Positions 4,372 to 56,875 of a stretch of DNA of 64,000 nt are shown here, one piece after another. The DNA comes from Octopus vulgaris (Eukaryota), in the NCBI GenBank assembly GCA_951406725.2, contig OX597835.1, positions 30,876,001 through 30,940,000 of the forward strand, in the 5' to 3' direction. A program made the translations under genes and the position numbers. Numbering within the stretch: position 1 is the first letter of the stretch; every line of letters begins with the position of its first letter. Under the pieces are notes generated by a model. That model ran no database searches. It was not told the origin of the DNA and was given only the letters and a program-made list of their open reading frames with translations.

Positions 4372-4466
4372 ATGTTCATACACTACACCTGTTTCCAAAG
4401 AACTTTGAACATGATGTATAGAGATATCACATCCTGCGGACAAAAACATTTTCATCAGGTGAACAT
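4372..4466 (-). ncRNA. Putative type I hammerhead ribozyme with long stem II (possibly decayed)
   Basis: Minus strand AUGUUCAC-CUGAUGA-56 nt-GAAAC AGGU GUA-GUG UAUG AACAU; stem I pairs with a 4-nt bulge; stem II closing pair is A.G. Confidence 0.5.
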
Positions 4467-4477
4467 ATATATGGTTT

Positions 4478-4698
4478 CCTCACACGATACAGCTATGGGT
4501 CAGACCCGATTCTGATTCGTCAAAACATTGATGACGTCTTTCTTCCGTGGTCAAACTACTCGTTCTGCTGGACTAGCCACCTAACAGGATACAGTCATGG
4601 GTCAGATCTAATTTCGATTCGTCAAAAAAATGATGACGTATTTCTTCCGTGGCCAAACTGTCGTTCCGCTTTGTTGGTTTCCTAACAGGATACAGTTA
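4478..4698. repeat. About 102-bp diverged tandem repeat, about 2.2 copies
   Basis: cct(c/a)aca(c/g)gatacag recurs at 4478, 4580 and 4681; gattcgtcaaaa..gatgacgt..ttcttccgtgg occurs twice. Confidence 0.85.
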
Positions 4699-6162
4699 GG
4701 AGTCTTTTCACTATATTCGTTGACACTGGGTTTTGATTTGTTTGGAACCATATGACGTCAGTGAAAAGTGCAAGTGACCACAGCTTAGCTGAGCTGATAT
4801 AAATCCAACAATCACAAATTCACCAAAATTATGCGGGCAGACACCGACCAAAAATCATTACTGTTGCTCCCATTGGAACACAAGGTAAAATCTAAAATGA
4901 ACTCCTCGCCTTTTCAAGAACATGAATTTTTTATATTTGACTCTATTGAATATATGTCACAATTATGAACTATCACATCATACTCTTTAAACATATAGCA
5001 TGGACTCTCTTTATTATATATAATTTTTTTTGATAAGGTTCGTCATTTCAAGAACCGAAACATGTTAAATTAAAATTTGTCTAATATAGCAGCATTTTCA
5101 AACTTCCTTTTTTACAAATATATATATATATATATATATATATATATATATATATATATATATATATATATATATATATATATATATATAGTGTGTGTGT
5201 GTATGTTTGTCATGTTATGTCTAAAATCAATTTGGCATTTAACTTAAGAATTAGCCAATAATTTTTGGTAGAGTGTATATTTCTGAATTATCACATCGTG
5301 GACGTTGACTCTAACGTTTAAGTTTACGGTTCAGCTCCTGCCTTCTTCTCAATGTGAATTACTTTCGTTCTTATATACGCATATGCATGTGTCTGTGTTA
5401 TATATATATATATATATATGTGTGTGTGTGTGTGTGTGTGTGTGTTTGTATGTGTGTGTGTTTGTGTTTGTGTGTGTGTGCTTACACACACACACATATA
5501 TATGTATATAAAATGAAATTCAAAGGCTTGTGTGTTTTACCTGTTCTGTAGGTACAAGCATATTTCACACTTTGATATCCAAGTCGACAATCTCTCTCTC
5601 TCACTATCTCTCTCTCTCTCTCTCTCTCTCTCTCTCTCTCTCTTCCTATATATATGCAGATATACACAGGTACGAACGAATATCTATACATAGGCATATA
5701 TATGTATGTGACTGTCTGTGTATGAATTTATATAGATCTGTACGTATTTCTGTGTGTGTGTATGTACGTATGTAATAAGTGCTTTTTTACATGTGTCTAT
5801 GCGAATATATATACTGTTTGTATGTGCCAAGGTGACGAGGCATATTGAGAAAAAAATATGATCTTTTAATGTTGAATAAATTATTGTGTTTATGCTTGCG
5901 AACGTGTAGTTCTGTTCGCCATTAAATTATGCGAATACATATATTTAATTAAATTTGCATATACACGTTTTGCGTACACCAGAATCTCATTATGCGTACG
6001 TACGCCTGTATGAAGGCATGCAAACCTATATAAATACCTGCATACAAGCAAACGCAGACGCACATATGCGTGCCGTTATGTATATGTTTGTATATAAAAA
6101 AAACAGAATTCTGCATATAACATACACTGTGTGTGCAGTCAAATATATGTACATACACACGT

Positions 6163-6878
6163 ATATCTATCTATCTATTTATCTATCTATCTATCTATCT
6201 ATCTATCTATCTATCTATCTATCTATCTATCTATCTATCTATCTATCTGTCTGTCTGTCTATATATCTCTCTATTTATCTATCTATCTGTCTATCTATCT
6301 GTCTATCTATCTATCTATCTATCTATCTATCTATCTATCTATCTATCTGTCTGTCTGTCTATATATCTCTCTATTTATCTATCTATCTGTCTATCTATCT
6401 ATCTATCTATCTATCTATCTATGTATCTATCATTTCTCTCTCTGTCTCTCTCTTTCTCCCTCCCCATTGTATATACATATAAATATATGTCTGTATATAT
6501 ATTAAAATAATATATATATATATATATATATATATATATATATATATATATATATATATATATATATGTATATATATGCATACAAATTTGGACGTTTATA
6601 TGTTAAGAGACAGAAAGAGGAGGAGAGAAGGACAGAATACGAGCGATAGAAAGAGAGGGAGAGAAAGAGAGAGTGAAGGAGAGAGAGAGCGTGTGCAAAA
6701 GAGATACAGATATTATGTTACCAACGTGGATTGATACAAAGATAGACAGTCAAGTACACAAATCAATAGGGGGACACTTTGATAGATAGATAGATAGATA
6801 GATAGATAGATAGATAGATAGATAGATAGATAGATAGATTGATAGATAGATAGATAGATAGATAGATAGATAGATAAG
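6163..6878. repeat. (TATC)n array, then (TA)n, then complementary (GATA)n array
   Basis: Direct reading. Confidence 0.9.
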
Positions 6879-54600: not shown

Positions 54601-56358
54601 ATATGTGTGTGCGTGTGTGTGTAAGACCTTATTCTCTATAACTGTATTTCTCTGTCCTTCATTTTGCCTTTCTTCCTCTGTTTCTGCTACAATTTCTGCC
54701 TCTCTCTCTCTCTCTCTCTCTCTCTCTCTCTCTAACTCTAGCTCTCTCTTTCTTTCTTTCTTTCTTTCTCTCTCTCTCTCTCTCTCTCTCTCTCCCTCTC
54801 TCTTCCACCAGCTCCATCCAATATATCTTTTACTGAATAATGCATTCAGAGACACGCATACTCACACACACATACACACATACACTCATACACACACATT
54901 AACACACATAAACACATACACACAGACACATATACACACTTACACACACATATACACACATACACACACACAGAAAAATACTCTAACATACACTCTTTTC
55001 TCCCCTTTTCCACATTCGTTCGTCCACCCCTGGCACATGGCTCACCCACCCGCCGCCAAACGCCATATACGTCCACTTCCACCACCATCGCCATCAACAT
55101 AACAACTACTACCACCACCAGCCACTCCACCGCCACCACCTTCGCAATCAATTTAACCTCAATCAGCATCAACGCCAACATCACCACCAACTCCATGCGC
55201 CCAGAAACTAGCCCCACCGCCATCATCCCCATCATCATCACCACCATAAGCACCATCAACACAACCACCAATTCAATCTCAGTTATTACCAACACCAGCA
55301 TCACCATCAACACCACCAGAAACAGCAGAACCAGCACCAACACCACCACCGCCAACACCACCTCTAACATCTCCTCCACCACCTCCACCAATTCCTCCAC
55401 CATTACCACCACCTTCACCGACACCACCACCACCGACCCCCACCATCACTAACTCAACCATAACCCACACCACTCCGAACATTACCAGCTTGCCATCACC
55501 ACCAACAGCAACAAAGTCACCACCACCACCACCAACATCACCAACAACACTACCACCACCACAACCACTACCAACAACAACATCAACAACAACATCGCCA
55601 ACGCCACCCCTATTGCAACCACCTTCCTTTGACATCCTCCCTATTCGATCAATAACCCCATCTCTATCATTGAACAGACCAATCAACGTTGACACTCTGT
55701 AAGTGCTCAGACAATTATAGCGTATTTCTGCCATCTTGCTTTCCATTTCCTCTCCCCTACTCTTTCTCACACCTCCCTTTGCCCTCCTATCACACCATTT
55801 TGTACGTTCCCAACTCTTCCTTCCTCCCACCTATCATTATCTTATCTTTATCATTTTCGCTACGACTGCTGGGTAACACTAACTGACGTCATCAACACTC
55901 ACAATTCCGCCATATTCTCTGCATTTCCAGCGCGTATATTTATGTCACATTCTAATTTACACCCGTACATATATATATATATATATATACATATATGTAC
56001 ACATATGCATATAAGGGTACAGGACGTCACCGTCAGTAAACAACATGAAATATGAAAAAAAAAATGAGTTCAATAGACAGACAACGAGAGAAACAAATGG
56101 AAAACAGGACAAGTAACATAAAGAACGACCCTTTATCATTTATCGGTTGTCTATCTACTCCTGATTTCGAGCATTGTATGTATATATATAAATATATAAA
56201 TATATATATATATATATATAAATATATAAATATATATATATATATATATATATATATATATATATATATATATATATATATATTAGTAATGCAATACTAG
56301 AGTATTGCTTTCCAGTAAAAAGTAGCCCGTGAGGGAAAAATATACAAAGAAGTAAATA

Positions 56359-56441
56359 AATGTTTGGCTGATGAAGATAGATCAAGTTTATGGGTGGCAG
56401 ACATATCTTGAAAAATCTGAAACCTGCGCAGGTCCCACATT
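56359..56441 (+). ncRNA. Type I hammerhead ribozyme with a canonical core
   Basis: AAUG UU UGG-CUGAUGA(56368-74)-AGAU..UCAAG..CUUGA..AUCU-GAAA(56419-22)-CCUGCGCAGG-UC(56434)-CCA CAUU; all three stems pair. Confidence 0.85.
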
Positions 56442-56686
56442 ATCCTTTTCCAGGTATTTCATCTTTCAGATGTTCTCCCTGGAGGTAAGACAATTTTTTC
56501 TAGTTTGTTGCACACACGCATTTTTGCTAGTACATACGCGGTGAAGCTATACATTAGCGTCGTATTATTACGTTCGCTATTTCCAGTAAATATCGGTGCT
56601 TCGTTGTGCCATATATTTACTTCTTTGTATATATATACATATATATATATATATATATATATATATATATATATATATATATATAT

Positions 56687-56875
56687 AGGGAGAATTTACG
56701 AAAAAAACAAAAAACGAAGATAGGTGGTGTACAAAACATACAGATGTATTAGTATAACGCTCAGGAATAGAAAAAGTCTTTTTGGTTTCGAGCCTAAGCA
56801 CTTCTACAGAAAGGGACACATGAAAAACAAAGAAGAAACAAGGAGGGAAAAAAATGTGTGTAGTGGCTAACGATT
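56687..56875 (-). mobile_element. Short Penelope-like element in (TA)n with a decayed HHR (56777-56813)
   Basis: Homologous to 25988-26225; CUUU-CUGUAGAA-GUGC UUAG GCUC-GAAA CCAA-AAAG. Confidence 0.65.

Follow-up and report, generated by a model that had tools for sequence, protein, structure and literature searches.

This study concerns a stretch of 64,000 nucleotides (nt) of Octopus vulgaris DNA (contig OX597835.1, positions 30,876,001 to 30,940,000; hereafter the window) and the hammerhead ribozyme motifs within it, each named here by the position of its core C3. We consider it rather probable that the window combines ten type I hammerhead motifs, likely to be the ends of Penelope-like elements (PLEs) and of short non-coding derivatives of these, with a repeat called here family X whose RNA would fold into a non-circularly permuted hammerhead able to cut itself. 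A more far-reaching proposal, on which our judgement is evenly balanced, is that family X is an active ribozyme of this kind with a split C block, a connectivity beyond the six permutations considered possible, and that it would process the RNA of a very abundant retrozyme family which depends on Penelope and is present in at least three related species.

Layout and predicted fold of family X

The original prediction, made from the letters of the window, had listed eight hammerhead-like motifs. Three further CUGANGA sites, at 26881 (+), 33768 (-) and 34563 (-), were not among them, and here GAAA stands before CUGANGA and not after it. All three belong to one non-coding, TA-inserted family of 700-800 nt. 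Two copies lie together on the minus strand (Table 1), are identical at 311 of 313 positions and have predicted ribozymes 795 nt apart; the third is diverged and has the same layout, with a CT-rich part, a hairpin (26556-26602), a T-rich part, the ribozyme and a 3' tail. Read 5' to 3', the predicted ribozyme opens with a P0 strand, hairpin H1, the 10.x strand of stem II and a strand of a linking helix; next come the cleavage block and, beyond a linker of 5 nt, the G block, and the other linking-helix strand, stem I, CUGANGA and the second P0 strand complete it. No hammerhead core letter is missing from any of the three copies (3/3), and the blocks stand in the non-circular order S-G-C, with the cleavage block first, GAAA second and CUGANGA last. 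A linking helix of 7 base pairs (bp) joins stems I and II, with 14 of 14 cells paired, one two-sided change and two one-sided changes, and two-sided changes suggest covariation in stems I and III as well. A descriptor open to all block orders matched only the three family X sites and the type I motif 56368 in the window, and Rfam gave no match on the insertion at 33681-34788. One trait of animal retrozymes without long terminal repeats (non-LTR retrozymes) was seen at 34563 and 33768 alone, and at none of the eight motifs first listed.

The pairing, substitution and descriptor tests used the two distinct full sequences of family X. Between them the 73-nt core is 81% identical, and all 11 core letters have been kept while the flanks and other parts drifted to 56-60% identity. 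Fourteen differences fall in the core. Three pairs, one each in stem I, stem III and the linking helix, have changed in both partners and account for six of them; at two more the pairing persists, five lie at unpaired positions, among them H17 and N7, and the last disrupts a pair of stem I. With random placement and the same transition share, 13 of 500,000 trials kept as many pairs and two-sided changes together with the whole core. Over the six helices 69 of 72 cells are paired, against 17-50% for slid partners. The descriptor in the observed order matched three sites in the window, none in 151 unrelated loci (290 kb) and five in 2,000 shuffled windows; the control loci were matches to looser patterns (31 plus 120, the latter from 15 of the 64 parts of the collection), none of which fitted the ordered descriptor or gave a blastn match. 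Scans for the family X pattern gave no match in viral contigs and none in metagenomes, and the comparison of G-U pairs on the two strands (23 vs 22 and 22 vs 22) was uninformative.

The family X unit, or part of it, was found in 20 of 24 sequencing runs (11 studies, three organism labels), and from these sequences the family appears to be very abundant and common to contigs of the three labels. For four runs, 470 of the 795 nt were compared at 80% likeness with aligned contigs (2,095, 3,503, 2,059 and 123), which are unphased and whose summed depth is not a copy number. This depth peaks in all four runs at 33793-33808, on the ribozyme; in the three large runs it is about 1,400-1,700 times that of the 5' part there, about 30-70 times that of the bin 33745-33760 and well above that of the 3' end, so the ribozyme is the best-kept part. 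Among the variants listed, four places lie in the 73 nt: two are unpaired, one turns G-U into G-C and one adds a sixth pair to stem III. None of those listed touches the core, stem I or stem II; N7, a free position, also occurs as G and, like H17, differs between the window copies. Loose contig ends show other stem I letters, with their partners out of view, and one 701-nt contig, possibly from the same locus, spans a head-to-tail join with a unit of about 799 nt. A second depth peak lies at 34017-34064, over a GAAA-capped hairpin of family X. Both copies also have a second long hairpin that starts at CACGTG (26556-26602 on the plus strand and 34097-34160 on the minus strand), with folding z-scores of -5.2 in one and -1.7 in the other.

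Several observations weigh against the proposed fold and its activity. The structure was read from the same two sequences, so the pairing, substitution and ordered-descriptor tests are post hoc. A looser, all-permutation descriptor reached the same pair score in 53 of 1,000 shuffles, and a column shuffle of the helix pairing was as good in 32 of 500. Stems I and III have one two-sided change each, and stem II is invariant, so there is no covariation in it between the two distinct sequences. Nested folding shows only part of the full fold in each copy, the folding z-scores of family X (-0.23 and -0.94) are not significant, and the 2-3 nt between stem III and the linking helix may not leave enough room for every helix at the same time. 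Variants at 33847 (in H1) and 33883 (in P0) break pairs, and the variant and loose-end results hold for those listed, beside 17 further variants and 348 further loose ends. From other systems, hammerhead mutants of an anole PLE left insertion in vitro unimpaired (PMC11167929), and one of nine Xenopus retrozyme dimers cleaved (bioRxiv 10.64898/2026.07.22.740005).

Two alternatives draw on these points. The pairing might be chance in a repeat with a pyrimidine/purine bias, as the post hoc reading of two sequences and the looser descriptor would allow; we find this very improbable in view of the ordered descriptor, the substitution test, and the conservation peak and variant pattern in independent contigs. 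The structure might also be real and no longer catalytic, serving as a folded handle for a PLE protein or as a fold switch, its core persisting because the family is young. The different nested minimum-energy folds of the two copies, the tight geometry and the unimpaired anole mutants are in line with such a loss of function, which we nevertheless think unlikely: none of the 11 core letters has been lost although the flanks are down to 56-60% identity, and the positions that do vary, H17 and N7, are the two free ones. In an active hammerhead, cleavage may need the help of a protein, as in the anole PLE.

A further question is which strand completes stem II. In the type-SGC hammerheads of Eckert 2023 the stem II strand follows CUGANGA within 1-2 nt, with no longer insertion seen there (PMC10085705), and published search patterns (type CSG) encode a contiguous CUGANGA and stem II. 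No stem II of at least 4 bp directly follows CUGANGA in family X; the best partner lies upstream. This upstream GGCUG (10.x strand) is invariant and the linking-helix strand comes directly after it, as in type SGC. In both window copies the bases that follow CUGANGA form pairs with the P0 strand lying upstream, and both copies of the young insertion have an A-C mismatch at the downstream 10.1-11.1 pair. On these grounds, and on the loose ends described below, we read the motif as a type-SGC hammerhead that P0 and H1 interrupt between A9 and G10.1. Its stem II appears to take the 10.x strand from upstream, and two helices would separate A9 from G10.1; if P0 and H1 stack end to end, these two nucleotides would emerge at one nick and remain near each other. 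We do not class family X as a member of type SGC, since no contiguous C block was found and cleavage is only predicted.

Family X could instead be an ordinary type-SGC hammerhead in which a GGCU five bases after A9 forms stem II, with a 5-nt insertion and no new connectivity; even then, an animal genome would hold a non-circular permutation. That GGCU is present in the 26881 copy, and a G at 33756 that creates it takes 80-98% of the summed depth (17, 24 and 15 contigs), which supports this downstream stem II. Against it, the commonest loose end 3' of CUGA (84, 105 and 64 contigs; agreement with the consensus about 0.8) is without GGCU and, by eye, pairs over 12 bp with the upstream P0 strand. 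Together with the mismatch, the P0 pairing, the invariant GGCUG and the insertion limit of Eckert 2023, this leads us to give the ordinary form little credence.

Other classes were considered for these sites and rejected. Family X is not a type I hammerhead, as no GAAA block lies downstream, nor a type II hammerhead, as stems I and III form no hairpins; an HDV-like ribozyme was dismissed by eye, by comparison with HDV anatomy, on a P1 of 5 bp and the lack of P3 and P1.1. A GAAA...CUGAUGA order at 50191 (-) was also discarded: its relative at 56081-56172 is without the core, and no descriptor matched. These two sequences form a repeat family (50136-50225 and 56081-56172 (+), 79% alike) in which each copy terminates at the same place, next to a TA run, with a small hairpin; no hammerhead was found in it.

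Type I hammerhead motifs

The eight motifs of the original prediction were all found where it had placed them, on the strands it gave, and we take all eight as real; its list was incomplete, with 5030 (+), 27776 (-) and the three family X sites absent. An intact core with all three helices is kept in four of the eight (10389, 14549, 36940 and 56368). The first two have C at position 4, a natural hammerhead variant, and 36940 has U3-A8. The other four are damaged: 4458 has complete core letters and a helix II that is unpaired at its base, 26148 has A6U, 56809 combines A6U and U16.1A with a mismatch in helix II, and A13G and U16.1C occur in 35338. The U at core position 6 occurs in both copies of family 2 (26148 and 56809, both on the minus strand) and may be fixed in that family. 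A tandem duplication of about 102 bp (4478-4704) lies directly upstream of 4458.

Matches were compared with dinucleotide shuffles of the window in 300-nt blocks, using descriptors drafted only after the motifs had been seen. The original prediction had suggested such a control, and the minimal descriptor with an intact core gave four matches and none in 200 shuffles, above the level of chance; with one core change allowed it gave five, against a shuffle mean of 0.005. The long-helix-II descriptor gave two matches (mean 0.043), and four (mean 0.32, with one of 300 shuffles as high) when the basal pair was not demanded, which recovers 4458. Motif 35338 is found only with two core changes allowed, when 16 matches against a mean of 11.7 (38 of 300 shuffles as high) are at the level of chance. 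None of the type I descriptors in the shuffle test matched 56809, which is counted as a relative of 26148 (77% identity). The type I descriptor scan also matched at 14130. Rfam, a further check that had been proposed, gave no match in the window at the gathering score; in its E-value search, microsatellite matches to microRNA models dominate and no ribozyme is among the 150 of 592 matches listed. Folding z-scores of single hammerhead motifs were in no case significant.

With 5030 and 27776, which the same descriptors add, the window has ten type I motifs, six of them minimal. The core is intact in four of these six (5030, 10389, 14549 and 36940), and G10.1-C11.1 closes helix II in all six, on stems of differing sequence. 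The original prediction had named palindromic helix III as a PLE trait, and among the ten motifs the palindrome is perfect in six, one pair off in three and two pairs off in one (4458, 5030 and 14549 read by eye, the other seven by script). A (TA)6+ run lies within 300 nt downstream of six of the eight listed motifs, the exceptions being 4458 and 10389 (background 26%, p=0.005). Of 12 independent sites, 10 are followed by a TA run within 300 nt (background 26%, p=5e-5).

Minimal hammerheads of PLEs are described with a short helix I, G10.1-C11.1, often an extra base after A9, a palindromic helix III and a U3-A8 variant, and those of metazoan genomes as mostly single truncated remnants (Cervera 2014, PMC4209133). 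The six minimal motifs share these traits of the metazoan PLE pseudo-LTR hammerheads described there and are likewise mostly single copies; in contrast to these, no attached PLE reading frame was found for them in the window (150 of 239 candidate frames scanned). A further difference is the helix II region of 44-69 nt in four window motifs, against 7-8 bp in the published PLE hammerheads (PMC4209133). The ten type I motifs are likely to be the ends of PLEs and of their short non-coding derivatives, and the eight listed ones are likely ordinary, partly decayed ribozyme remnants of PLEs. The kind of system that the original prediction put forward is already described (PMC4209133; bioRxiv 10.64898/2026.07.22.740005), and the eight motifs add little beyond an extension of the pattern published in 2014; what is unusual in the window, family X, was not on its list.

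Insertion anatomy, putative partner proteins and other features

The original prediction had several distinct, non-autonomous hammerhead families in TA microsatellites. The distinct families and the TA targets stand, with an insertion anatomy of the PLE type; two of the families are short non-coding units in partial tandem, of 362 nt (36676-37037) and 795 nt (33681-34475), and the others may be either non-autonomous or pLTR remnants truncated at the 5' end. Anatomy of the PLE type was seen at four sites (36676, 33681, 27736 and 56284), the third of them extending over 27736-27919. In the insertion at 36676-37256 the 84-nt tandem piece is 100% identical and the 135-nt inverted piece 97.8%. Inverted 5'-truncated copies occur at 37256-37122, 27855-27921 and 56340-56358, and none was seen in family X. 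The unit 56284-56630 opens with an inverted copy of its own 3' end and a further extension; this inverted 5' piece still holds about 55 nt from beyond the 3' insertion end (regions 56284-56358 and 56570-56630), and a part of it is complementary over 11 bp to 56581-56591, which could place the insertion end in a loop. Families 1 (10389 and 14549) and 2 have a common downstream motif, and a fragment without hammerhead (Table 1) keeps only the 3' end of family 1, which fits 5' truncation from a fixed 3' end.

Partial tandems and an inverted 5' copy with a tail belong to the described insertion anatomy of PLEs (Craig 2021, PMC8557442), and the anole PLE Poseidon (Anolis) uses AT-rich targets, with reverse transcription starting internally, downstream of the hammerhead (PMC11167929). 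The window insertions resemble both in AT-rich targets, partial tandems and inverted 5' copy with tail; in the sequences, this anatomy is in keeping with reverse transcription that starts at one fixed internal site and stops at varying points towards the 5' end, as in the anole PLE. The PLEs of these two studies encode a reverse transcriptase and a GIY-YIG endonuclease, whereas neither was found in the window units. A PLE protein could not be tied to the elements: no reverse transcriptase or GIY-YIG domain was found in the 150 of 239 candidate window frames scanned, and the peptides of two hammerhead units gave no homologues. As the window scans found no PLE protein, the partner is one that we infer. 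Short open frames begin within or close to hammerhead units at 37114-36998 (-; 38 codons) and 56371-56544 (+; 57 codons), each with a GT splice-donor-like word beside it. The zf-RVT match at 62852 and the HTH match at 58039 were rejected as partner candidates, being unrelated to the hammerhead elements. The 2026 annotation of Octopus vulgaris gives PLEs as 6.83% of the genome, with 190 families, 31 of which have recent insertions; the word ribozyme is absent from its text and supplement. Animal retrozymes have been argued to be non-autonomous PLE derivatives (Li 2026, bioRxiv 10.64898/2026.07.22.740005).

All the elements, family X included, could alternatively be 5'-truncated ends of autonomous PLEs, with no short unit that moves by itself and no circles. 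The fixed 3' end with random 5' truncation in family 1 speaks for this, as do the mostly single motifs, in keeping with the remnants of Cervera 2014 (PMC4209133), and for several of the eight listed motifs truncation is the likeliest reading. As an account of every element it is possible, and we do not think it probable: the 362-nt and 795-nt units directly follow a copy of their own 3' end and have no coding frame, the two family X copies are alike in length and layout, and a head-to-tail join, maybe of the same locus, is spanned by the 701-nt contig.

We propose the following mechanism. A PLE reverse transcriptase and GIY-YIG endonuclease encoded elsewhere would nick (TA)n and begin to copy these RNAs internally, roughly 90-270 nt downstream of the ribozyme; insertions with a fixed 3' end, a variable 5' end and partial tandems would follow from such a start. 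In the family X transcript the upstream strand would complete stem II, with the stacked P0 and H1 holding A9 near G10.1. As CUGANGA is transcribed last, the fold would close, and cleavage would wait, until the whole domain is made. Predicted cuts after 34608 and 33813 would release a 795-nt monomer. This may circularise, and PLE proteins may turn it back into DNA as partial tandems, a route that has been put forward for animal retrozymes.

The window is AT-rich, about 22 of its 64 kb are tandem repeat, and it holds no tRNA. Fragments of non-LTR 3' ends, which we take to be Dong/R4-like, lie beside (TAA)n at 1369-1781, 2744-3297, 3557-4105, 41030-41578, 58803-59220 and 62852-63651, the last with the weak zf-RVT match. 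A decayed transposase fragment at 57700-58300 (-), with HTH matches including that at 58039, is probably Tc1/mariner. Also present are a satellite array of about 58-bp units (47581-48572), an inverted repeat (51919-52002 and 52119-52202, 82% alike) around a TA/TG run, a repeat of about 200 bp in three copies (13768-13965, 19316-19513 and 33144-33311; two of them 95% alike) and a short interstitial TTAGGG array (29986-30025).

Table 1. Hammerhead motifs, predicted ribozyme parts and insertions in the window (window coordinates)
Position	Strand	Feature	C3	E value
4372-4466	-	Long-helix-II hammerhead, core letters intact, bulged helix I, helix II unpaired at its base	4458	
5027-5069	+	Minimal hammerhead, U3-A8 core, 5-bp helix II, palindromic helix III, weak helix I	5030	
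10358-10393	-	Minimal type I hammerhead, C at position 4, intact, family 1	10389	
14545-14579	+	Minimal type I hammerhead, C at position 4, intact, family 1; unit of about 235 nt, 14448-14681	14549	
15807-15884	-	Family 1 3'-end fragment (80 nt) without hammerhead, between TA runs		0.0011
26116-26153	-	Minimal hammerhead with A6U, family 2; unit 25987-26239, TA runs on flanks	26148	
26294-26986	+	Diverged family X copy, about 690 nt, between TA runs		
26765-26900	+	Predicted rearranged hammerhead of diverged copy: G10.1 26815, U16.1 26835, H17 26836, G12 26853	26881	
27684-27781	-	Type I hammerhead, long helix II, 8-nt palindromic helix III; inverted partial copy 27855-27921 (+)	27776	
33681-34788	-	Family X insertion between TA runs: 313-nt 5'-truncated copy 34788-34476, then full 795-nt unit 34475-33681		
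33751-33885	-	Predicted rearranged hammerhead, full unit	33768	
33751-33885	-	Upstream parts: P0 5' 33885-33877; hairpin H1 33874-33837; stem II 10.x strand 33834-33830; linking helix 33828-33822		
33751-33885	-	Cleavage block: stem III 33818-33814; H17 33813 (predicted cut after it); stem I 33812-33807		
33751-33885	-	G block: stem II 11.x strand 33801-33797; GAAA 33796-33793; stem III to 33789		
33751-33885	-	Last parts: linking helix 33782-33776; stem I 33774-33769; CUGANGA 33768-33762; P0 3' 33759-33751		
34546-34680	-	Second copy of predicted rearranged hammerhead, truncated upstream repeat	34563	
35329-35421	+	Probable long-helix-II hammerhead relic (A13G, U16.1C), descriptor no better than chance	35338	
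36676-37256	-	PLE-type insertion between TA runs: 135-nt inverted piece 37256-37122, 84-nt partial tandem 37121-37038, 362-nt unit 37037-36676		
36905-36946	-	Minimal type I hammerhead, U3-A8 core, palindromic helix III, intact	36940	
56359-56441	+	Type I hammerhead, long helix II, 12-nt palindromic helix III, intact; unit 56284-56630	56368	
56777-56814	-	Decayed minimal hammerhead (A6U, U16.1A), family 2; unit 56687-56876, TA runs on flanks	56809	

Relation to known ribozymes and significance

Type-SGC hammerheads (HRIMA-1 and variants) were found only in metatranscriptomes, with none reported in genomes of known organisms (Eckert 2023, PMC10085705). Family X resembles them in the S-G-C order, in having all core letters, in stems I-III that are predicted to form as pseudoknots, in the short linker from stem I to stem II and in the extra helix that joins the far sides of these two stems. 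It differs in that the type-SGC stem II strand comes directly after CUGANGA, whereas in family X the 10.x strand would lie upstream, with P0 and H1 between A9 and G10.1; also, family X is a high-copy animal repeat, with cleavage predicted from sequence. The PK hammerhead of Zhan 2024 (PMC11300833) likewise has a base-paired tertiary helix instead of loop-loop contacts, but in it the helix II loop pairs with an added stem-loop and the block order is not described as rearranged.

Animal non-LTR retrozymes are short non-coding units, of 51-972 bp in Li 2026 (bioRxiv 10.64898/2026.07.22.740005). As in these (PMC7229834; Li 2026), family X has short non-coding head-to-tail units with one ribozyme per unit, and a non-autonomous derivation from PLEs has been proposed for such retrozymes; they carry type I hammerheads (PMC7229834; Li 2026), whereas family X carries the rearranged S-G-C form. 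The insertion of the 362-nt unit, unlike these retrozymes, has one ribozyme only.

We found no report of a non-circularly permuted hammerhead from an animal genome in the literature searched, most subscription papers lying outside it; if our reading is true, no rearranged hammerhead of an animal genome would precede family X in that literature. Eckert 2023 counts six possible hammerhead orders, on the assumption that CUGANGA is inseparable from the stem II strand (PMC10085705), and an active family X ribozyme would break this assumption. Rfam and contiguous-block descriptors miss the rearranged form. PLE clades are reported without a hammerhead or with a 'half core' only (Craig 2021, PMC8557442), and these could be re-screened, since such searches would have missed it. 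Furthermore, rearranged hammerheads were known almost exclusively from anonymous RNAs of metatranscriptomes, and a high-copy genomic family that offers many natural variants and occurs with type I relatives in the same genome would make the origin of non-circular permutations testable.

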